Shown: positions 17,869 through 58,859 of the stretch, piece after piece
Layout of the letters: every line of letters begins with the position of its first letter
Numbering within the stretch: the stretch's first letter is position 1
From: Candidatus Kaiserbacteria bacterium
GTDB lineage: Bacteria; Patescibacteriota; Minisyncoccia; Phycocordibacterales; UBA2100
NCBI GenBank assembly: GCA_016432285.1
Contig: CP066682.1
Location: 528,428 to 592,427, forward strand
DNA: 64,000 nt
Direction of reading: 5' to 3'
Made by a program: the position numbers and the translations under genes
Notes under the pieces: generated by a model
What the model saw: only the letters and a program-made list of their open reading frames with translations
What the model was told of the DNA's origin: nothing
Databases searched by the model: none

Positions 17869-17886
17869 CCGAAAGTATAACGCGGA

Positions 17887-24096: not shown

Positions 24097-24188
24097 CGGC
24101 CGATTGTATCAAACTTGACCCACACCCCGCATGTACCGCATAGTTCTCGCGGAATTAATTTTGTGTTCTCCACAGAAGGAACGAGCCG

Positions 24189-26616: not shown

Positions 26617-27438
26617 CTACACGCCGCACAGTTGCCGCGCTTCTTCGAGCACTTGTGGAATACGCGCCGGCTTCACGCCGTACTCCTGGAGCACATGCGG
26701 CGCAGAAACGTGCTTGCAGAGGACGACGCGGTTTTCGAGAAGCCGGTGCTTCTCGCCTTCGGAGAGCGTGGTGAGACACGTCAGGGGATGCACGCCGCCT
26801 TCCTCGATCATTTGCATGAGATTGCGCCCCTGCGGGTAGTCCCAGCCCATGAGCGTGAGATTGGCGCACTGCGAATACCGGATTGCGTTGGAGGTGAAGG
26901 AGGTGTTGGTCACGAGCCATCCTTCGTCAACGTGCGACTGCCCATGCGCTAGTTTCAAGTCCTCGTACCGCGCGTGCACGTAGAGCGCGTCTTTGATGTC
27001 GGTCTTGCCGCCCGGCTCGTTATGGAATTTGGCCTCGATGCCGATCCGCTTCCCGCCCTTTTCGGCGAGCACGTCCACTTCGTGTTGCGCGCACCGCCCC
27101 GAAAGGGCGACGCCGGTCCGGGCGCTCCAGCCATGCGCGCGCATCACCTCCGCTAGGAATTGCTCGAAGGGAAATCCGGAGGGGCCAAGCTCGAAGAGAG
27201 CGCGCTTCACTGAGTAGCGCGCGGCCACGTGGTGCGGCTCCGTAGTGCGCAGCAAATGGTACGCATGCCGATAGATTTGCTCGGTCGTCATGCCGGGCTT
27301 GAGCTCCTCCAGCACGCGCGCCGCGATCTTCGCGCGCGTCGTGGAAGAAGCGCCGGAGTGCTCAAGCGAGTGCTCGAGCTTCACCGGGTCGAAGGGCTCC
27401 TGCTCGCCGTCGGCCTTCGTGATGAGCACGTTCTTCAC
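26617..27438 (-). CDS. ATP-cone domain fused to a restriction-endonuclease-like (PD-(D/E)XK) domain
   Basis: N-terminal ATP-cone pattern (MKNVLITKADGEQEPFDPVKLEHSL...). Then VDVLAEKGGKRIGIEAK (D...ExK). GTG start at 27438 chosen so the protein begins at the ATP-cone and does not overlap mnmA. The ORF-track start at 27600 would overlap mnmA by 128 nt. Confidence 0.6.
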   Translation of the reverse strand: MKNVLITKADGEQEPFDPVKLEHSLEHSGASSTTRAKIAARVLEELKPGMTTEQIYRHAYHLLRTTEPHHVAARYSVKRALFELGPSGFPFEQFLAEVMRAHGWSARTGVALSGRCAQHEVDVLAEKGGKRIGIEAKFHNEPGGKTDIKDALYVHARYEDLKLAHGQSHVDEGWLVTNTSFTSNAIRYSQCANLTLMGWDYPQGRNLMQMIEEGGVHPLTCLTTLSEGEKHRLLENRVVLCKHVSAPHVLQEYGVKPARIPQVLEEARQLCGV

Positions 27439-27472
27439 TCCTCTATTGTATCTCGCGCAGATGCGAATCTTC

Positions 27473-28522
27473 TCACCTACGCTGTGGACGAACAGTTCCT
27501 CCTCCCACAATTTCGTCACCACGATAAAGTGCGATGCTCTGCCCCGGCGTTGCGATGCGCGGTTCGTCGAAGCGAACGACTTTGTCTGCGAATACTGCAC
27601 CGACGGGCTCCTCTCGGTACCTCACAACCGCGCTGATCGCGGCGCCATTCTCCGGCGGGTCGTCGACCCAGCTCACGTTCTCGATCTCGGCTTCCTGTGT
27701 CGCCGCATCCGTTTTGCGCGACGAGACGGTGATCGTATTGTTCGACACATCTATGGCAACGACGTAATGCGGTACGTGAGTGTCGCCCTTCTGCACTAAA
27801 AAGCCATGCCGCTGGCCGAGCGTGTAGAGTGCGGCGCCGCTGTGGTTACCGATCACGTTGCCTCGCCCATCAAGGACATCGCCCGGCTTTAACGCGATGT
27901 AGCGCGAGAGAAATTCGGGAATCGACACGTCACCCACAAAGCAAAGCCCTTGGCTGTCGTGCTTTTGTGCGACCGGGAGATCGCGCCGCCGCGCGTCGAC
28001 GCGCACTTCACTTTTCGTGAGGGCGCCCACCGGAAACAGGGTGCGCTCGAGATCCTCCTTCGTCAGCCGATACAGAAAATACGACTGATCTTTCGCCGGA
28101 TCCACCCCTTTTCGGAGGGTGAGGGATTTCGTAAATCGATCATCGCTGATGCGGGCGTAGTGACCGGTCGCGATTTTGTCGGCGCCGCTCTCGTGTGCCC
28201 ACCGTGCGAAGTGACCAAACTTGATCGAGCGATTGCAGAGTACGTCGGGATTCGGCGTGATGCCGCGCTCGTAGTCGCGCACCATTTCCTCCACCACTTC
28301 TCGTTTGTATTCCTCGGAGAGGTCGATCTCTTTGAAAGGTATCTCGAGCGCGGCGCATACGCGCATCGCGTCGAGCCGATCCTCCCGCCACGTGCATTCG
28401 GTAAACTCCGGCTGCCAGATTTTTATGAACGCGCCAACGACCTCGTATCCCGCATCTTTGAGGAGCGCTGCCGAGACGGCGCTATCGACACCGCCCGAAA
28501 GCCCGACAAACACTTTTTGCAT
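27473..28522 (-). CDS. mnmA: tRNA-specific 2-thiouridylase
   Basis: PP-loop (VGLSGGVDSAV) and overall MnmA pattern. Confidence 0.9.
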   Translation of the reverse strand: MQKVFVGLSGGVDSAVSAALLKDAGYEVVGAFIKIWQPEFTECTWREDRLDAMRVCAALEIPFKEIDLSEEYKREVVEEMVRDYERGITPNPDVLCNRSIKFGHFARWAHESGADKIATGHYARISDDRFTKSLTLRKGVDPAKDQSYFLYRLTKEDLERTLFPVGALTKSEVRVDARRRDLPVAQKHDSQGLCFVGDVSIPEFLSRYIALKPGDVLDGRGNVIGNHSGAALYTLGQRHGFLVQKGDTHVPHYVVAIDVSNNTITVSSRKTDAATQEAEIENVSWVDDPPENGAAISAVVRYREEPVGAVFADKVVRFDEPRIATPGQSIALYRGDEIVGGGTVRPQRR

Positions 28523-31002: not shown

Positions 31003-31222
31003 GCTCTTAGTGTAGCATCACGAAAATTGAAACGGCTCCCGTGAGGGAGCCGTTGTTCATTAGTGACTATTGGAAGCCGAGAATACCTCGCGGCTTTGCC
31101 GCGAGGTTGGGAGGCTGACAGATTTGAGGCGGCGGTGGCCGCCTCGCCTTCCAAAAAAACAGCCCGGTGTCGGCCGCACAATGCTCCGCGGCTTGCCGCG
31201 GAGATGTGACGGACGACCTGTT

Positions 31223-32245
31223 TTATTTTGCGAGCGAGTATCTGCCGTCGGGCTGTCGCGTAAACATGGAGTTCTGCAAATTGACGGCGATCGTCGCGTC
31301 TTTGACGTAGCGTTCGCGCTTGACGCGATCCACGATCTCATCGCGCGTGAGAGGCCCTTCTCGATTGAGGATGCCGCGGATCACTTCGCGCACGACGCCC
31401 GGCTCGTATCCCCATTCTTTGAGGGCGTAGAGGCCACGGCCCACGAGCACGAAACGTCCGTCCTTGATGAGCTCGTTGTGGGTCGTCGCCGGATGAGCCT
31501 TGCGAGTGAAAAGCTTCTCGATACCCTTGGCGACCTCGATGAAGTGCATCGGCGAGCCGTGACGCTTCAGGGTGAGGTAGGCGAAGTCGCGCGTGTTCTT
31601 GATGCGCACGTGGGGGGATTCCATCCTGCCCCATTCGCCGAGCGGATTTTTGCCAAGCCGTTTCGAAATCGTCAGCCAACGCACCGTCGTGTCGGCGCCG
31701 CGATTTTTAATTCCCTCCTGCTTCAGATATTTCGTGAAGAGTTCAATGAATTCCTCTTCCGGCGTGAGGCGGTGCGGCTCGATGGACTCGTACAAATTGG
31801 TGAGCGCCCGCTCGATCGCGTCGGCGAGCGTCTCATCGATGTGCCAGCGCGTGCGGAAGTTGGCGTCTTCGCGCCGGTCTTCAAAATGGTGTCCAACGGT
31901 GAGGAGGAAGGTAACGTGGTTGCGCTCGGTGTCGCTCTTGGGGACGTGTTTGTGGATGGTTTCCTCCGCCACGACGCCCCCGAGCTCGTGGAGCGCTTGT
32001 TTAAGACCCTCCAAATGCTGGAGGGCTTTCTGGTACGCCTCGGATTCGCGAATCTGCGCGAGGCTGTGGTTTTCGATTTGGCGAATTCGCTCCCTGGTGA
32101 TGCCGTACTCCTGCCCGATCGCGTCGAGCGTGCGGCTCTCGCCCTTTTGGTTGAGGCCGAAACGGTCGGTGAGAACCTTCCGCGATCGCTCGGGAAGGTC
32201 GGCAAGGAGCTCTTTCGTTACGTTTTTGGGGGAAAAGGTAAGCAT
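31223..32245 (-). CDS. Sigma-70 region-4 domain fused to a HARE-HTH-like C-terminal domain
   Basis: N-terminal LPERSRKVLTDRFGL...LDAIGQEYGITRERIRQIENHSLAQIR (region 4.2-like). C-terminal ...DGRFVLVGRGLYALKEWGY (HARE-HTH hallmark, as in RpoE delta). Confidence 0.55.
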   Translation of the reverse strand: MLTFSPKNVTKELLADLPERSRKVLTDRFGLNQKGESRTLDAIGQEYGITRERIRQIENHSLAQIRESEAYQKALQHLEGLKQALHELGGVVAEETIHKHVPKSDTERNHVTFLLTVGHHFEDRREDANFRTRWHIDETLADAIERALTNLYESIEPHRLTPEEEFIELFTKYLKQEGIKNRGADTTVRWLTISKRLGKNPLGEWGRMESPHVRIKNTRDFAYLTLKRHGSPMHFIEVAKGIEKLFTRKAHPATTHNELIKDGRFVLVGRGLYALKEWGYEPGVVREVIRGILNREGPLTRDEIVDRVKRERYVKDATIAVNLQNSMFTRQPDGRYSLAK

Positions 32246-45863: not shown

Positions 45864-45970
45864 ATTCGCGCAGTATACACAGCAATTCTTGAATGCGCCG
45901 ATGAAGATCGACTTGAATCTCTCGCGAAACGTGGTACAATTAAGTTCGCTACAACCAGTGGAGATCTCGA

Positions 45971-52531: not shown

Positions 52532-53815
52532 TCAAATGCCTGTCAAACTCCTTCGCCGGCGCTTGCGGTGCCAGCCGATCGCGAAGCGGTGCGCCTCGTT
52601 GTTGGCGAGCAGAATGTCTTTTTCGTAGAGCTCGATCGCTTTGCGGTCGCCGATCAGACGCTCCGGGCGATGAAATTCGTTCTTCACAACGCCGACGAGC
52701 GGAATCAGCAGCCCCGCCTCCTTCAAAAGCCGCTCCGCTGCCCGCATCTGCGCGACTCCCCCGTCGACGACGAAGACGCGCGGGAGCGGCCACTCCGGAT
52801 GATTGAGCCGCCGCGAGAGCGCCTCGCGCAAGGCCGCCACGTCGTCGTTGGTGGCGCTCCTGATCTTAAACTTGCGGTACGAATTCTTGTCGGCGTGCCC
52901 ATCCTCCACCACAGTCATCACGGCCACCGTCTCCGTGCCTCCCGTGTGCGCGACGTCGTAGCTTTCTATTCGCGTGCCTGCGGCGCGAACGATTCCACCA
53001 GTCGCGATCCGTCGGTCTTCCTTGATGAGCGAGACGTCGCGCACATGTTCGAGCGCGCCGATCTGCCGCTTCAGAAGTGCGGCCTCTTCAAAGCGTTGCT
53101 CACCCGCGGCCTTTTTCATATCGACGGCCAACTGCCGCTTCAGTCCCTTGAAGTTGCCCCTAAAAAGCTCCGCGAGGTGCCTGATCCGATCGGCGTACTC
53201 TTTTTTGCTCATCTCGCCCGTACACACTCCGGGACAAAGCCCGATCTGGCGATTAAAACAGGGCCGGCACAAGGACTCCCCTTGTGCGGCCTTTTTTTTG
53301 GTCATTTTTTGTTGATCGGGGCACGGGACGCATGTGGAATCGCGGTATGGAAAGATGCGACGCACCAACCGCAGCGCCTCCTGGAGCGAACCGCCTTCAG
53401 GAAATGGCCCGAACAGGTGTTTGATGTCAGCCTTGTGCCAACCGTGGTAGAGCTCGCGTCCGCGCACCGGCAGGAGTCGCGGAAAATCTTCCTTCGTGAT
53501 GACGAGGTAGTTGTAACTTTTGTTGTCCTTCTCATCGACGTTGTAGGGCGGCTGATGCCGTTTGATGAGACTCGCTTCGAGAATAAGGGCTTCGAGCACC
53601 GAATCGGTCCTCTTGTGCGAGATCGAATCTGCACTCGCCACCATGCCCACGATGGCAGGACTTCGCGCGAGGGCGAGATCGCTCGAGAAGTAGCTGCGTA
53701 CCCGATCCCGGAGCGAGGCCGCCTTACCGATGTAGAGGATTTTTCTCCTCTTCCTGAAGAGGTAGACACCGGGGCCGTCGGGCAATTTGATTTTTTTGAG
53801 TTCATCCTTTGTCAT
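52532..53815 (-). CDS. uvrC: Excinuclease ABC subunit C, short form (lacks the C-terminal HhH)
   Basis: GIY-YIG N-terminus (GVYLFRKRRKILYIGKA), UvrBC-interaction region and RNase H-like endonuclease domain. Only 427 aa. Confidence 0.8.
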   Translation of the reverse strand: MTKDELKKIKLPDGPGVYLFRKRRKILYIGKAASLRDRVRSYFSSDLALARSPAIVGMVASADSISHKRTDSVLEALILEASLIKRHQPPYNVDEKDNKSYNYLVITKEDFPRLLPVRGRELYHGWHKADIKHLFGPFPEGGSLQEALRLVRRIFPYRDSTCVPCPDQQKMTKKKAAQGESLCRPCFNRQIGLCPGVCTGEMSKKEYADRIRHLAELFRGNFKGLKRQLAVDMKKAAGEQRFEEAALLKRQIGALEHVRDVSLIKEDRRIATGGIVRAAGTRIESYDVAHTGGTETVAVMTVVEDGHADKNSYRKFKIRSATNDDVAALREALSRRLNHPEWPLPRVFVVDGGVAQMRAAERLLKEAGLLIPLVGVVKNEFHRPERLIGDRKAIELYEKDILLANNEAHRFAIGWHRKRRRRSLTGI

Positions 53816-53908
53816 CGTCGATGAGTATACCTAATTGACGATCTCGCGCCCGTACTGTTTGATGCTCGGGGGACTGCACACAGCCCGCAGTCCAAAAAGG
53901 AGAGACCC

Positions 53909-54439
53909 ATGAGTGAGCCATTGCTTGTGCCATACGGCACCGTGGCGCGCCCCGTGGGGTTCGCCGTACTGATCATTGATATGCAGCCGGAGTATTTCAA
54001 AAAACCGACGCGCCGCAAACGCGAGCGAATGCTTGCCGCGCAGCAGCAAGCCTTGGCATTCTGCGCCACGATTGATATCCCCGTCGCCATGGTTGAGTTC
54101 GGCGCCGAGGAGACCATTACGGAAATCTCTGCATCCGTACATCGTGTCCCGCGGAGCGTGCGATTACGCAAGCACAGCGCGGATGCGTTTTTCGAGACCT
54201 GCCTCGACGAGCAGCTGCACGCATGGCATGCACGCACGCTTGTCCTCGCGGGACTCGTTGCGGGCGGATGCGTACTCGCGACGGCTCGGTCGGCCCTCTC
54301 GCTCGACTACAACGTACGAACGAGCGAGGCACTGATCGGCGACGAGGATTGCGACAACCTCGAAATCACCGTCGACAAGTGGTACCGCGAACGAAACCTT
54401 CTCATCGACCCTGATATGCGACTCCTCTTTGGGTCGTGA
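53909..54439 (+). CDS. Isochorismatase-family cysteine hydrolase
   Basis: VLIIDMQ...LVLAGLVAGGCVLATA. Followed by a strong hairpin terminator. Confidence 0.75.
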   Translation: MSEPLLVPYGTVARPVGFAVLIIDMQPEYFKKPTRRKRERMLAAQQQALAFCATIDIPVAMVEFGAEETITEISASVHRVPRSVRLRKHSADAFFETCLDEQLHAWHARTLVLAGLVAGGCVLATARSALSLDYNVRTSEALIGDEDCDNLEITVDKWYRERNLLIDPDMRLLFGS

Positions 54440-54476
54440 GCGCGCCGGATCCACGGATCCGGCGCGTACCTTTTCC
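54440..54476 (+). terminator. Rho-independent terminator
   Basis: GCGCGCCGGATCC-ACG-GATCCGGCGCG followed by TACCTTTTCC. Confidence 0.6.
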
Positions 54477-54480
54477 CCGT

Positions 54481-54625
54481 TTGACATTTCCAAAAAAAGG
54501 AATAGACTTATGCTTTAATGTCTCTCCCAGAGCGCAATCACACCGGCACCCGAAAGGGTGTATTTTTGTATCCCGCTGAAAGCGGGCTTTTTTTTACCTC
54601 GAGCGCCGAGAGGCCGCACGTATGA
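54481..54625 (+). promoter_or_regulatory. carAB promoter plus leader-peptide/terminator attenuator
   Basis: TTGACA (54481), about 16 nt, then TAGACT. A 35-codon leader ORF (54518-54625, MSLPERNHTGTRKGVFLYPAESGLFFTSSAERPHV*) whose TGA overlaps the carA ATG. Within the leader ORF: a U-rich tract, then hairpin CCCGC-TGAAA-GCGGG followed by 8 U (54572-54595). Confidence 0.45.
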
Positions 54626-55671
54626 AGCTCCACCTCGAAGATGGATCGATGTGGGAGGGTCAGAGCTTCGGCGCACCTATCGCCAAAGGTCGACAGGTGC
54701 ACGGCGAGGTCGTTTTCAACACAGGCATGGTGGGCTACCCGGAAGCCCTTACCGACCCATCGTACGCGGGCCAGATACTCGTCACCACCTATCCCCTCGT
54801 CGGCAACTACGGCGTTCCTGATCCGAAAACACTCGAATCCGAAAAGATCCAGATCAGCGGGCTCGTGATCTCCGAATACTGCGAAGAGTACAGCCACGCC
54901 GGCGCTGTGCAGTCACTCTCTGAGTGGCTACGGGCCGCGGGGGTGCCGGCCATCAGCGGAGTGGATACACGTGCGCTCACGAAGCGCTTGCGAGAGCACG
55001 GCGTCATGCTCGGACAGCTCTCCGAGGGTCGTCCCGCCAAAAAATTCATCGACCCCAACGAGCGAAATTTGGTTGCCGACGTGAGCCCTCGCAAAAAGAA
55101 AGTGTACGGATCCGGCACGGTAAAGATCATCGCGCTCGACTGCGGCATGAAGGAAAACATCGTCCGCTCGCTGGTGCGAAAAAATGTGACGCTCGTGCGC
55201 GTCCCGTGGGACTACGACTTCACCAAGGAAAAGTACGACGCGCTCTTTATTTCGAATGGCCCGGGAGATCCGACGCAGTGCGCCGCGACGATCGAGCACA
55301 TTCGCTATGCAATAAAGAAGAATAAGCCCATCCTCGGCATCTGCCTTGGCAATCAGCTCCTCGCGCTCGCCGCAGGCGCCAAGACCTACAAGCTGAAATA
55401 CGGCCATCGCTCGCAAAACCAGCCCGCCATCGAGGCGGGGACCGATCGTTGCTACATCACTTCGCAAAACCACGGATTCGCCGTCGACGAAAAGTCGCTC
55501 CCCCCAGGATGGGAGCCGTGGTTCCACAACGCCAACGACGGCAGCAACGAGGGCATCCGGCACAAGACGAAACCATGGCGCTCCGTACAGTTCCACCCCG
55601 AGGCATGCCCCGGGCCCACCGACACCGCCTGGATCTTCGACGATTTCCTCCGCTCTCTCAAAGCCGTATGA
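54622..55671 (+). CDS. carA: Carbamoyl-phosphate synthase small (glutaminase) subunit
   Basis: CPSase small-subunit N-terminal domain and GATase catalytic triad region (GICLGNQ). Confidence 0.95.
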   Translation: MKLHLEDGSMWEGQSFGAPIAKGRQVHGEVVFNTGMVGYPEALTDPSYAGQILVTTYPLVGNYGVPDPKTLESEKIQISGLVISEYCEEYSHAGAVQSLSEWLRAAGVPAISGVDTRALTKRLREHGVMLGQLSEGRPAKKFIDPNERNLVADVSPRKKKVYGSGTVKIIALDCGMKENIVRSLVRKNVTLVRVPWDYDFTKEKYDALFISNGPGDPTQCAATIEHIRYAIKKNKPILGICLGNQLLALAAGAKTYKLKYGHRSQNQPAIEAGTDRCYITSQNHGFAVDEKSLPPGWEPWFHNANDGSNEGIRHKTKPWRSVQFHPEACPGPTDTAWIFDDFLRSLKAV

Positions 55672-58600
55672 CGCGTACACCGAAAAAAGTGCTGCTCCTT
55701 GGATCCGGCGGCCTTCGCATCGGCCAGGCGGGCGAGTTTGACTACTCCGGCTCTCAGGCAATCAAGGCGCTGAAAGAAGAAGGCATCCGCGTCGTGCTCA
55801 TCAACCCCAATATCGCCACGGTGCAGACCGACGAAAAACTGGCCGACGAGGTGTACTTCCTGCCGCTCACTCCCGAGTTCACCGAAAAAGTGATCCGCAA
55901 AGAAAAGCCCGACGCGATCCTGCTCTCCTTCGGCGGGCAGACGGCCCTCAATCTCGGTCTGACGCTTGAAAAGAAAGGTGTCTTGAAGAAATACGGCGTG
56001 CGTGTGCTCGGCACTCCCGTCGCGACGATCCGCGACACCGAGGATCGCGACCTCTTCGTCAAACGCCTCGGCGAAATCGGCGTCAAAACGGCCCGCAGTA
56101 TCGCCACCGCCTCCGTAGCGGAAGCCGCTCAGGCCGCCTCAAAGATTGGCTACCCCGTGATGGTCCGCTCGGGTTTCGCTCTCGGCGGCGAGGGATCCGG
56201 CGTAGTGCGCTCCGAAGAGGAGCTGCGCGCCAAACTCGAGGAGGTGTTCCGTTCGGTGCCGCAGGTACTCGTCGAGGAATACCTCGGCGGCTGGAAAGAG
56301 ATCGAGTACGAGGTCGTGCGCGACAGGGCCGACAACTGCATCACGGTCTGCAACATGGAAAATTTCGATCCCATGGGTATCCACACGGGCGAATCCATCG
56401 TGGTCGCTCCTTCGCAGACGCTGACCAACGCCGAGTACCACGGCCTCCGCGAGATCGCGATCCGCACCATCCGGCACCTTGGGATCGTCGGCGAGTGCAA
56501 CATCCAGTACGCCTTGAATCCGGAAACTGGCGACTACCGCGTGATCGAGGTCAACGCGCGCCTCTCGCGCTCCTCCGCCCTCGCCTCCAAGGCGACTGGC
56601 TATCCGCTCGCGTTCGTCGCGGCGAAGCTTGCGCTCGGGTACACGCTCACCGAAATCACAAATTCCGTTACGCGGGAGACGATCGCCTGCTTCGAGCCTG
56701 CACTCGATTACGTCGTTTTGAAGATTCCTCGCTGGGATCTCAACAAGTTTGAAAAGGCCGCGCCGCGAATCGGCACCGAAATGAAGAGCGTCGGCGAAGT
56801 GATGGCGCTCGGGCGCAATTTCGAGGAGGTGCTTCAGAAGGCGCTCCGGATGCTCAACATCGGCGCCTACGGCCTCACCGCGCACAAGGGCGAGAATTTC
56901 CGGATTCCTGACTTTGACGACGAGATCAAAAACGCGACGACGCGGCGCGTCTTCGCAATTGCCGAAGCGCTCAAAGCCGGCCGCTCCGTCGAATCGATTC
57001 ACAAAGCGAGTGCGATCGACCCGTGGTTTTTGCACAAAATGCGGCGGATCATGGAGATCGAGCGTTCGCTCGCTCGCGGCACTCTCACGCCCGCACGCAT
57101 GCGCGAAGCGAAGCGTGCGGGCTTTTCGGACGCGCAGATCGCCGTCATCCGGAAATCCACGGAAGCCTCGATTCGAAAAGCGCGCAAGCGCATGAGAGTC
57201 CTGCCGGTCGTCAAGCAGATCGACACGCTCGCGGGCGAATTTCCCGCGCAGACGAATTACCTCTACATGACGTATCACGGCACCGAACACGATCTCGTGC
57301 GCGGCAAAAAGCAGGTCGCGGTCTTGGGAAGCGGACCCTATTCGATCGGCTCCTCGGTGGAGTTCGACTGGTCGAGCGTCCAGGCGCTGCATACGCTGAA
57401 AAAGGAGGGCTTCGGCACGATCATGATCAACTACAATCCCGAGACCGTCTCCACCGACTACGACGAATCCGACCGTCTCTACTTTGAGGAGCTCTCGCTC
57501 GAGCGTGTCTTGGATATTGCAGATTTTGAAAAGCCAGCAGGAGTCATCGTCTCGACCGGCGGTCAGATCCCCAACAACTTGGCACTGAAGCTGCGAAAGA
57601 GAGCCGTGCCGATCCTCGGTACCAAGCCGGAAGACATTGATCGCGCTGAGAACCGGCACGTCTTCTCGAAGCTCCTCGACCGGCTCGGCGTGGACCAGCC
57701 AGAGTGGGCGGAGCTCACCACGCTCACGGCAGCCGAAAAAGCCGCGGAGCGGATCGGCTATCCCGTGCTCGTGCGGCCGTCGTACGTGCTTTCGGGAGCT
57801 GCGATGAGCGTCGCGCAAGACAAGGAATCGCTCGTGCGTTTCCTGAAGCGAGCCGTCGACATCTCCTCCGACTACCCAGTCGTTATTTCCAAATTTATCG
57901 AGAACGCGCGTGAAATAGAAATCGACGGCGTCGCACAAAAAGGCAAGCTCCGCGTGTACGCGATCACCGAGCACGTGGAGAACGCCGGTAAGCACTCGGG
58001 GGACGCAACGGTAGTGCTGCCGCCCCAGCGCACGTACATTGAGACGATCCGCCGCGCGCGGCAGATCGCCAAGGCGATCATCAAGGAACTGAAGATCACC
58101 GGTCCCTTCAACATCCAATTTCTAGCCAAGGACAACCGCCTCCAGGTCATCGAGTGCAACCTCCGGGCATCCCGTAGCTTCCCCTTCGTCTCGAAAGTTA
58201 CAGGGTACAACTTCATCGACATCGCGACGAAGGCGATGCTCGGCAAGGATGTCTCGGCGGACTACCGCACGCTCGAGCTCGATCTCGTGGCGGTTAAATC
58301 GCCGCAGTTTTCGTACGGGCGCATCAAAGGAGCGGATCCCGTCTCATACGTGGAGATGGCTTCCACGGGCGAAGTGGCGTGCTTTGGCGACACGTATTCA
58401 GAGGCATTGCTGAAGTCGATGATGGCAGCGGGTTTTCGCCTTCCCAAAAAGAACGTTCTCGTCTCGCTCGGAAAGGAGGAGAACAAGGTAAAGCTCCTGC
58501 CGAGCATCGAACTGCTCTCCGGTATGGGCTTTAAGATATTCGCAACCGAAAATACTGCCGACTTTCTTCGCGAGAGCGATGTCGCGTGTGAGAAGGTCTA

Positions 58601-58859
58601 CAAAATCAGCACCCACAAGCATCCGAATGTCGGCGATCTCCTTGCAAAAGGTACGCTCGACCTCATCATCAATATCCCAACCCGCGCATTTCAGAGCGAA
58701 AACACCGACGGCTTCACGATCCGCCGCAAGGCCGTCGACACCAACGTGCCGTTGATCACCAATCGCCAACTTGCGGAGGCTTTCGTCGCGGCGCTTGCCG
58801 AACAGAAAGGCAACGGCCTTCACGCAAAGTCGTGGAGAGAGTATCGGAACGGCTCTTAA
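55668..58859 (+). CDS. carB: Carbamoyl-phosphate synthase large subunit
   Basis: Two ATP-grasp halves, oligomerisation domain and MGS-like C-terminal domain. ATG overlaps the carA stop (ATGA). Confidence 0.95.
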   Translation: MTRTPKKVLLLGSGGLRIGQAGEFDYSGSQAIKALKEEGIRVVLINPNIATVQTDEKLADEVYFLPLTPEFTEKVIRKEKPDAILLSFGGQTALNLGLTLEKKGVLKKYGVRVLGTPVATIRDTEDRDLFVKRLGEIGVKTARSIATASVAEAAQAASKIGYPVMVRSGFALGGEGSGVVRSEEELRAKLEEVFRSVPQVLVEEYLGGWKEIEYEVVRDRADNCITVCNMENFDPMGIHTGESIVVAPSQTLTNAEYHGLREIAIRTIRHLGIVGECNIQYALNPETGDYRVIEVNARLSRSSALASKATGYPLAFVAAKLALGYTLTEITNSVTRETIACFEPALDYVVLKIPRWDLNKFEKAAPRIGTEMKSVGEVMALGRNFEEVLQKALRMLNIGAYGLTAHKGENFRIPDFDDEIKNATTRRVFAIAEALKAGRSVESIHKASAIDPWFLHKMRRIMEIERSLARGTLTPARMREAKRAGFSDAQIAVIRKSTEASIRKARKRMRVLPVVKQIDTLAGEFPAQTNYLYMTYHGTEHDLVRGKKQVAVLGSGPYSIGSSVEFDWSSVQALHTLKKEGFGTIMINYNPETVSTDYDESDRLYFEELSLERVLDIADFEKPAGVIVSTGGQIPNNLALKLRKRAVPILGTKPEDIDRAENRHVFSKLLDRLGVDQPEWAELTTLTAAEKAAERIGYPVLVRPSYVLSGAAMSVAQDKESLVRFLKRAVDISSDYPVVISKFIENAREIEIDGVAQKGKLRVYAITEHVENAGKHSGDATVVLPPQRTYIETIRRARQIAKAIIKELKITGPFNIQFLAKDNRLQVIECNLRASRSFPFVSKVTGYNFIDIATKAMLGKDVSADYRTLELDLVAVKSPQFSYGRIKGADPVSYVEMASTGEVACFGDTYSEALLKSMMAAGFRLPKKNVLVSLGKEENKVKLLPSIELLSGMGFKIFATENTADFLRESDVACEKVYKISTHKHPNVGDLLAKGTLDLIINIPTRAFQSENTDGFTIRRKAVDTNVPLITNRQLAEAFVAALAEQKGNGLHAKSWREYRNGS

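Follow-up and report, generated by a model that had tools for sequence, protein, structure and literature searches.

A Putative Translated-Leader Attenuator Upstream of carAB in Kaiserbacteria-Like Bacteria

Introduction

The carA and carB genes, encoding the small and large subunits of carbamoyl-phosphate synthase (CPSase), lie within a 64,000-nucleotide (nt) stretch of a Candidatus Kaiserbacteria genome (assembly GCA_016432285.1, contig CP066682.1, positions 528,428 to 592,427 of the forward strand), which is numbered here from its first letter and referred to throughout as the window. Directly upstream from carA there is a promoter followed by a short open reading frame (ORF) which contains hairpins with U-rich tails and which ends on the carA start codon. 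On balance, we favour the view that this leader is a ribosome-dependent attenuator of the kind known from Escherichia coli pyrBI, coupled into carA and carB in Kaiserbacteria-like members of the candidate phyla radiation (CPR), with uridine triphosphate (UTP) as the most likely input. Taken separately, the proposal that a translated leader acts here as an attenuator is held with good confidence, while the identity of UTP as the signal that is sensed, which is suggested by the function of the regulated genes and by the U-tracts, is advanced only tentatively.

Conservation and Specificity of the Leader

Fourteen distinct leaders, including that of the window, were compared, with carA identities of 68–100%. 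One genome scan and one metagenome scan for carA yielded two CPR loci, L001 and L084 (69% and 68% carA identity, respectively), and twelve exact-protein look-ups yielded eleven further distinct upstream regions with carA 71–80% identical. L084 and L178 derive from Hainich samples. The carA gene of the window (54622–55671, forward strand), the first gene under the proposed control, is 100% identical in product to P0001, which is annotated at NCBI as the Candidatus Kaiserbacteria glutamine-hydrolysing CPSase small subunit and carries the Pfam domains CPSase_sm_chain and GATase. The same anatomy of promoter, start ATG, hairpin and stop-start junction recurs at all 14 distinct loci and its usual form can be summarised by the descriptor TTGACN-16-TAnACT-N3-5-TTTTAATG, followed by an ORF that spans at least one terminator and ends at the start codon.

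The full anatomy was not found among 115 non-CPR carA loci. About five of these carry an ORF of 25–60 codons with a stop overlapping the carA ATG, and 14 carry a terminator-like hairpin within 160 nt upstream, while a hairpin ending no more than 30 nt from the carA ATG was seen, apart from the two CPR loci in the set, in a single weak candidate (L077). A covariance model of the leader, R1, gave exactly one match per CPR locus when the window and 33 loci were searched, with no second copy elsewhere in the 64-kb window and none in the 20 non-CPR carA loci that were included; a marginal match to L083 (E = 0.64) was disregarded. When positions 54300–54800 were searched with Rfam cmscan at E <= 10, no PyrR, riboswitch or leader family was matched, and the matches obtained were generic terminator look-alikes (RyhB, Trp leader and others) scoring 11–18 bits against gathering scores of 35–55.

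One locus outside the CPR, L004, from a metagenome-assembled genome of the KSB1 phylum, carries a long terminator-like hairpin at about 2930–2975 (AAAACCCCAAAACACACC...GGTTGTGTCTTGGGGTTTT), some 30 nt before the carA start region, which could be either the terminator of the upstream gene or another kind of carA attenuator.

The Leader Reading Frame

A 35-codon leader ORF, with a stop overlapping the carA ATG, had been described in the original prediction and is present as proposed. The ORF, MSLPERNHTGTRKGVFLYPAESGLFFTSSAERPHV, occupies 54518–54625 on the forward strand and its TGA (54623–54625) overlaps the carA ATG (54622–54624). Conservation of this ORF had been suggested as a check, and equivalent ORFs, of 17, 28, 30, 31, 32, 33, 35, 55 or 60 codons, were found in frame at all 14 loci, spanning every hairpin at each of them. 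Their stops overlap the carA ATG as ATGA at 13 loci, and at the remaining one, L180, the junction reads TAA tct ATG, with a gap of 3 nt.

The distances from the conserved ATG to carA take eight values (83, 89, 92, 95, 98, 104, 164 and 179 nt), all in a single phase, which requires at least seven frame-preserving indel events, with a chance probability of roughly (1/3)^7. Some single alignment gaps are not multiples of three and these are compensated close by. Across the leaders, in which stops are scarce whatever the frame, there are no stops in frame, as against four in the +1 frame and ten in the +2 frame. Dinucleotide shuffling leaves the frame open in 11–56% of trials (29% for the window leader) and, because shuffled sequences often stay stop-free, the case for the ORF rests on the frame being kept across the different lengths.

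Within codons 2–10, which are unstructured, substitutions at the three codon positions number 10/10/10, and it appears from this comparison that the act of translation, and not the peptide sequence, has been selected. A functional small protein and a sequence-specific stalling peptide were both considered and were rejected on account of the equal substitution numbers at the three codon positions.

Hairpins and Terminators inside the Leader

Two hairpins are located within the ORF of the window, both on the forward strand. Hairpin 1 (GCACCC-GAAA-GGGTGT, 54546–54561, about −9.6 kcal/mol) is followed at 54562–54569 by A, U5 and GU, with the U-tract at 54563–54567. The second is an intrinsic terminator (54572–54595), consisting of the hairpin CCCGC-TGAAA-GCGGG (54572–54586), a C and a run of U8 (54588–54595). 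Both were flagged in a terminator scan that yielded five sites in 53700–55200, where 1.5 are expected. The terminator had been predicted at this place inside the ORF and was recovered, with the addition of the C that precedes U8. The U-rich pause region that was predicted together with it exists as a U-rich stretch, but it is not free-standing and constitutes the tail of the first terminator-like hairpin.

Hairpin 1 lies at codons 10–15, starting 27 nt past the ATG, in 12 of the 14 loci. Its stem is nearly invariant among the relatives (ACACCC-N4-GGGTGT), its loop varies freely and, in L174, the stem carries a compensatory pair (CGCCC/GGGCG). In these 12 loci it is always followed by [TC]ATTTTT, such that the run extends to 5–7 U, and ATTTTT is invariant although the base after it takes all four values. 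L084 has a U7 run and no hairpin 1. Since hairpin 1, with U7, is the sole terminator before carA in L180, it can probably act as a terminator itself, and it may be considered as either a pause hairpin or a first terminator.

For the second hairpin, the stem sequence differs among the relatives (CCCGC/GCGGG, GCCCGC/GCGGGC, GTCCCC/GGGGAC, CCGCC/GGCGG, GCCCCC/GGGGGC, TCCCC/GGGGA and ATCCTCC/GGAGGAT) and the pairing is always kept. In the MAFFT alignment A1, 89% of the cells in the terminator helix can pair, compared with 30–52% when the partners are slid by 1–3 columns. Double changes are seen at columns 73/81 (CG in five leaders, GC in five and UA in one) and at columns 70/84 (CG in five and UA in three), and these compensatory changes bear out the expectation that the hairpin would be conserved in relatives. 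Hairpin energies in the relatives range from −7 to −12 kcal/mol and the tails are U-rich. In most lineages the second terminator follows hairpin 1 and its U-tract by 10–22 nt, and the usual state is thus two predicted terminators in tandem inside the leader ORF.

The possibility was considered that arginine is sensed, as by attenuators of the trp/his type, with ribosome stalling at arginine codons selecting an antiterminator. Carbamoyl phosphate is a precursor of arginine too, and the 5' side of the hairpin 1 stem holds one arginine codon (CGC or CGA) in most leaders. The window leader alone also allows a pairing of −5.4 kcal/mol between the 3' arm of hairpin 1 and the 5' arm of the terminator (GGGUGUA...UAUCCC). 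The arginine codon is, however, single, and it is replaced by a histidine codon in L166 and L168 and by a glutamine codon in L180. Arginine codons number 0–2 in most of the short leaders (28–35 codons), three in L164 and 3–7 in L170 and L174. Moreover, no conserved antiterminator was found in the relatives, where the 3' arm of hairpin 1 can pair with the spacer UACCC, a pairing that cannot antiterminate and that is much weaker (−3 to −9 kcal/mol) than the terminator (−7 to −12 kcal/mol). An antiterminator was rejected as a general mechanism because overlap with the terminator is seen in the window alone, and arginine-codon attenuation was rejected because the sole recurrent arginine codon at a fixed position is not conserved and no run of arginine codons occurs.

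The pairing in the relatives takes the form GGGUGUA-UUUU(N)-UACCC (for example at 1442–1460 of L166), an alternative hairpin whose loop contains the U-tract, and it possibly explains the conserved UAC, a tyrosine codon, that follows the U-tract. Pairing of a purine-rich 5' AAGAAG with the pyrimidine-rich terminator tail, which appeared in several minimum-free-energy folds, was set aside, as its register differs between sequences and such runs pair promiscuously.

The extremes of leader length were also inspected. L180 (1409–1503) carries a minimal leader with a 17-codon ORF, MTSVAMAHKNTQQGVFF, and with hairpin 1 and its U7 alone. L170 (1337–1503) and L174 (1322–1503) carry expanded leaders of 55 and 60 codons, in frame and ending in ATGA. 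These two have, after hairpin 1 and ahead of the terminator, an additional long hairpin (CGCCTCGCC...GGCGGAGGCG), and carA is preceded in them by a conserved tail of 40 nt (..CTCTTTCGAGCT..ATCAC.GT).

Promoter and Near-Leaderless Start

A promoter, TTGACA...TAGACT, had been predicted ahead of the ORF, and inspection of the sequence and a consensus scan both place it there. The −35 hexamer TTGACA (54481–54486) and the −10 hexamer TAGACT (54503–54508), on the forward strand and separated by a 16-nt spacer, score 10/12 in the scan, which found two promoter-like sites within 53700–55200 where 0.5 are expected. In the relatives, the −35 is kept as TTGAC[AT], at equal spacing, in 13 of 14 loci, with TTTACT in L001, and the −10 reads TATACT, TACACT, TACAAT or TATAAT at the matching place, such that TAnACT, 16 nt from the −35, is the reading that suits all of them best.

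Three to five bases then separate the −10 from the motif TTT(T)AATG, which in the window is TTTAATG (54514–54520, forward strand) and comprises a T-run over the predicted transcription start and then the leader ATG. The distance is fixed in 13 of 14 loci, with AATG beginning at the ninth nt past the −10; in L001 TTTTAAT is kept and the ATG that is used sits 9 nt further downstream. A run of three or four T at the predicted transcription start, within TTT(T)AAT, is common to all 14 leaders. We infer that transcription starts at about 54515–54518, which would give a 5' untranslated region of about 0–3 nt and, because the ATG is only 9 nt past the −10, there would be no room for a Shine-Dalgarno (SD) sequence on the leader mRNA. 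The T-run could be a second UTP-sensitive step or a mere device that forces initiation at the A beside AUG.

Such starts do not appear to be confined to carA. In the window, TAnA[ACT]T ends 5–11 nt upstream of 5 of the 44 likely gene starts, with a background frequency of 0.6%, and the majority of the genes lack complementarity to the anti-SD sequence. Judging from these motifs, leaderless mRNAs seem to be common in this Kaiserbacteria genome, and a leaderless start for the leader would fit that pattern. The −10 sites of TAnACT type lie 5–8 nt before the start codons of uvrC, an aminotransferase gene, an aldo-keto reductase gene and two unnamed ORFs (53824–53829, 45872–45877, 24103–24108, 31009–31014 and 17874–17879, all on the reverse strand), and the layout upstream from uvrC and the aminotransferase gene is TATACT, 8 nt and ATG.

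Translational Coupling to carA and carB

The carB gene extends over 55668–58859 on the forward strand, starting at the methionine at codon 74 of the listed ORF (ATG at 55668), and carB gene calls and Pfam matches are also present in the relatives. Its ATG overlaps the carA stop as ATGA (55668–55671), just as the leader overlaps carA, and the leader, carA and carB constitute a chain of overlapping reading frames, a translationally chained unit.

An SD-like sequence, GAGAGG (54608–54613, forward strand), occurs 8 nt before the carA ATG in the window. It is specific to the window, where it sits in a 21-nt extension not found in the relatives. The carA genes of the relatives mostly lack an SD and, where complementarity is present, it corresponds to the G-run of the terminator 3' arm. 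As carA is mostly without an SD, and ATGA occurs at both the leader/carA and the carA/carB junctions, the arrangement points to termination-reinitiation, by which all of the operon would be supplied from a single leaderless initiation. Neither the near-leaderless start nor the usual absence of an SD before carA in the relatives was part of the original prediction and, because of both, translational coupling is considered to be part of the proposed mechanism.

A long-range helix, also specific to the window, can form between 54520–54535 and 54603–54614 (GUCUCUC/GAGAGGC and GCGC/GCGC). It joins the first leader codons to GAGAGG, for which 54520–54526 is the partner, and may add a degree of translational masking in the read-through transcript.

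Proposed Mechanism

In the mechanism that we propose, a promoter of the sigma-70 type would start a near-leaderless mRNA at about 54515–54518, with the leader ORF as its first codons, and a 70S ribosome would load on the 5' AUG. RNA polymerase would then reach hairpin 1 and its U5–7 tract and, in most lineages, a stronger second terminator. If the ribosome is not close behind, the hairpins would form and the transcript would end before carA; if it is close behind, the hairpins would be covered or melted and the polymerase would continue into carA. On reaching the UGA of AUGA the ribosome would stop and re-initiate on carA, and again at the ATGA between carA and carB, so that translation of the operon would be chained to that of the leader. 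When UTP is scarce the polymerase would be slowed in the U-tracts, the ribosome would catch up, and more read-through and more carAB expression would result. By analogy with E. coli pyrBI, such regulation would most likely tune the synthesis of pyrimidine precursors without a repressor protein. The T-run might add UTP-sensitive start-site choice or reiterative initiation, turning a leaderless mRNA into a leadered one.

Several considerations weigh against a pyrBI-type, UTP-responsive attenuator. The 14 loci are phylogenetically close and do not amount to 14 independent observations, and a stop-free frame, on its own, is weak evidence for translation. An ordinary terminator would look no different from hairpin 1 and its U-tract, which give no separate sign of a UTP-sensitive pause site, and L001 has A-tracts, and no U-tract, ahead of its terminator. 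Termination, the action of a following ribosome in suppressing it, renewed initiation on carA and the sensing of UTP are steps that we infer from the arrangement of the sequence. Carbamoyl phosphate feeds arginine synthesis as well as pyrimidine synthesis and, finally, we know of no demonstration of tight ribosome-polymerase coupling in CPR bacteria.

Alternative Explanations

The alternative that survives best, although we consider it unlikely, is that the same hardware responds to the overall capacity of the cell for translation, for example to growth rate or to how efficiently leaderless mRNAs are initiated, or simply fixes the level of expression, with UTP not being specifically sensed. 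Every structural argument for an attenuator fits this explanation equally well, there is no U-rich region apart from the terminator tails, and L001, without a U-tract upstream of its terminator, would be accommodated. Furthermore, in a genome poor in SD sequences and rich in leaderless starts, a 5' starter ORF with ATGA could simply serve the translation of carA. For that purpose, however, carA could itself be leaderless, like the neighbouring uvrC, and the presence of one or two terminators within the starter ORF argues for a regulated decision. The conservation of ATTTTT after hairpin 1, next to a base that is free to vary, also speaks against it, as do the role of the target genes, which make a pyrimidine precursor, and the sensing of UTP by the known analogue (PMC4824070).

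It is improbable that regulation operates through RNA alone, with hairpin 1 or the leader binding a PyrR-like protein or a small molecule in the manner of a riboswitch and with the ORF being incidental. Attenuators that bind PyrR are found in Gram-positive bacteria. In addition, the stem of hairpin 1 and its flanks (AAGAAC before and UAUUUUU after) are highly conserved at the nucleotide level while the peptide sequence is not under selection, and RNA regulators of carA exist, for example the carA motif of Polynucleobacter (PMC8632094). Against this, the Rfam search gave no family and no PyrR match, its best generic matches reaching 14–18 bits; the loops of both hairpins vary (GAAA, GCCC, GCTC, ACCC, ATCC, GCAT, AGCA); and no internal loop or junction from which a pocket might form is conserved. 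Regulation by RNA alone would also leave unexplained the eight in-frame lengths, the absence of in-frame stops, the fixed ATG and the stop-start junction at 14/14 loci.

A still less probable explanation is that the promoter, ORF and terminator make up an independent small gene with its own small protein or small RNA. A promoter, an 80-nt transcript and a strong terminator do match the anatomy of a small RNA gene, and in Pseudomonas syringae the terminated leaders of carA build up as small RNAs (PMC4997734). However, substitutions in the peptide show no bias among the codon positions and its length varies from 17 to 60 residues; every copy of the element is joined to the carA start, with none elsewhere; and in the stretch from the terminator to the ATG, 5–26 nt long in most loci, there is no sign of a separate carA promoter. 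Sensing of arginine through the leader codons, for which the evidence was given above, is the weakest of the alternatives and is hardly credible.

Comparison with Known Systems

In E. coli pyrBI, a terminator located within a 135-bp leader gene is suppressed by a coupled ribosome (PMC4824070, PMC5021804). We read the pyrL-pyrB region of E. coli K-12 directly (NC_000913): TATAAT is followed after 7 nt by AATTTG; a GGGAGG SD lies 5 nt upstream of the 44-codon pyrL ORF; there is a hairpin at nt 31–50, UUUUUCUUC at nt 61–69 and a terminator, CCCCTC-AATC-GAGGGG with U8, at nt 89–115; and the pyrL TAA ends 3 nt before the ATG of pyrB, which has its own AGGAGA. The pyrBI-like architecture that had been predicted for the carA leader holds with respect to the order of its parts, but the U-tract is fused to hairpin 1.

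The likeness between the two leaders extends to several properties. Promoter, leader ORF, hairpin, U5 tract and a U8 intrinsic terminator inside the ORF follow in equal order, and the terminator lies in the matching frame, such that both peptides contain P-x-x-x-G-x-F-F (P..G.FF). The leader stop adjoins the structural ATG, with 3 nt between them in pyrL and L180 and an overlap at the remaining CPR loci, neither leader requires a mutually exclusive antiterminator, and the target gene acts in early pyrimidine synthesis. The 3-nt gap from the L180 TAA to the carA ATG is the same as the E. coli pyrL/pyrB spacing.

There are also clear differences. The target is carAB and not pyrBI, and the phylum is Patescibacteria/CPR. 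The CPR leader is near-leaderless whereas pyrL is led by an SD, and the CPR U-tract directly follows hairpin 1 and is terminator-like by itself. With an ATGA overlap and a carA gene mostly lacking an SD, coupling would be built into the CPR leader, in contrast to pyrB with its own SD. Dependence on UTP has been shown for pyrBI and is a proposal for the CPR leader. Direct comparison with the pyrL leader and peptide gave no homology beyond P..G.FF, which is shared because a terminator in that frame imposes it, and the resemblance to pyrL is best regarded, from the sequences compared, as analogy and not homology.

The same operon is controlled in Pseudomonas aeruginosa, where a leader peptide made from the carA promoter region is reported and attenuation by pyrimidines is proposed (Kwon et al. 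1994, as cited in PMC4997734). The likeness to this system is drawn through that secondary citation, and P. aeruginosa is a gammaproteobacterium with additional ArgR control. The P. syringae carA gene is without a leader ORF (PMC4997734).

For Polynucleobacter and other beta-proteobacteria, the carA motif has been described as a riboswitch candidate consisting of an extended imperfect hairpin beside the ribosome binding site, with no ORF reported (PMC8632094). It shares with the CPR element its conservation in cis just ahead of carA and its place below a single promoter, whereas the CPR element comprises two or three separate terminator-type hairpins in a maintained ORF.

Reiterative transcription that is sensitive to UTP occurs at E. 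coli carAB P1 (GUUUGC) and pyrBI (AAUUUG) (PMC6245113, PMC6524683). The CPR leaders resemble these in having a run of three or four T at, or beside, the predicted transcription start and, in L001 (2886–2898), the predicted initial transcript AATTTG is the pyrBI hexamer of UTP-dependent reiterative transcription (PMC6524683). In most CPR leaders, by contrast, the T-run precedes the likely purine start and does not follow it.

The CPR leader also shares with a fungal system the control of a CPSase small subunit gene by a short upstream ORF. In fungi, an upstream ORF of CPA1/arg-2 encodes the arginine attenuator peptide, a conserved peptide which stalls the ribosome in the presence of arginine and acts on translation and mRNA decay. 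It differs from the CPR leader, in which the peptide is not conserved and the terminators are the putative effectors.

Implications for CPR Bacteria

The genomes of CPR/Patescibacteria are very small and encode few regulators, the organisms are hard to grow, and to our knowledge almost nothing has been established about their metabolic control. A conserved attenuator that can be read from the sequence would offer a concrete regulatory mechanism for these organisms and, indirectly, evidence for transcription-translation coupling and leaderless initiation in the CPR. In the literature that we searched there was no description of a leader-peptide attenuator in this phylum, and this may conceivably be the first from the CPR, distinguished by a leaderless start, tandem terminators within the ORF and chained stop-start junctions that would gate both transcription and translation.

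If UTP is sensed, 'repression without repressors' through ribosome-polymerase coupling would have arisen independently in ultra-small genomes poor in regulators, and an independent origin of pyrBI-type logic on another gene of the pathway would support the view that nucleotides are sensed quite generally through the speed of the polymerase. Should the signal be something other than UTP, the leader would still provide a clean case of an operon chained to one leaderless initiation event. At about 140 bp it would be a part compact enough for tests in vitro or in a surrogate host.

Genomic Context

The window has a G+C content of 59%. Upstream from the leader lie uvrC (52532–53815, reverse strand) and an isochorismatase-family gene (53909–54439). 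The latter has an SD (AAGGAGAG) 5 nt ahead of its start, and a GC-rich hairpin of 12 bp comes after it at 54440–54466. In the relatives, without exception, uvrC and the carA leader are immediate divergent neighbours, and the isochorismatase-family gene between the two is thus a lineage-specific insertion. Because of this divergent arrangement, the hairpins of the carA leader are not terminators of an upstream gene. Downstream from carB, uvrA is encoded on the opposite strand.

A Pfam scan of 40 neighbouring proteins in the window revealed no pyr or arg genes within the 64 kb. Two proteins with unusual domain combinations were encountered, one with an ATP-cone and an Mrr-type restriction endonuclease domain (26617–27600, reverse strand) and the other with sigma-70 region 4 and HARE-HTH (31223–32245, reverse strand).

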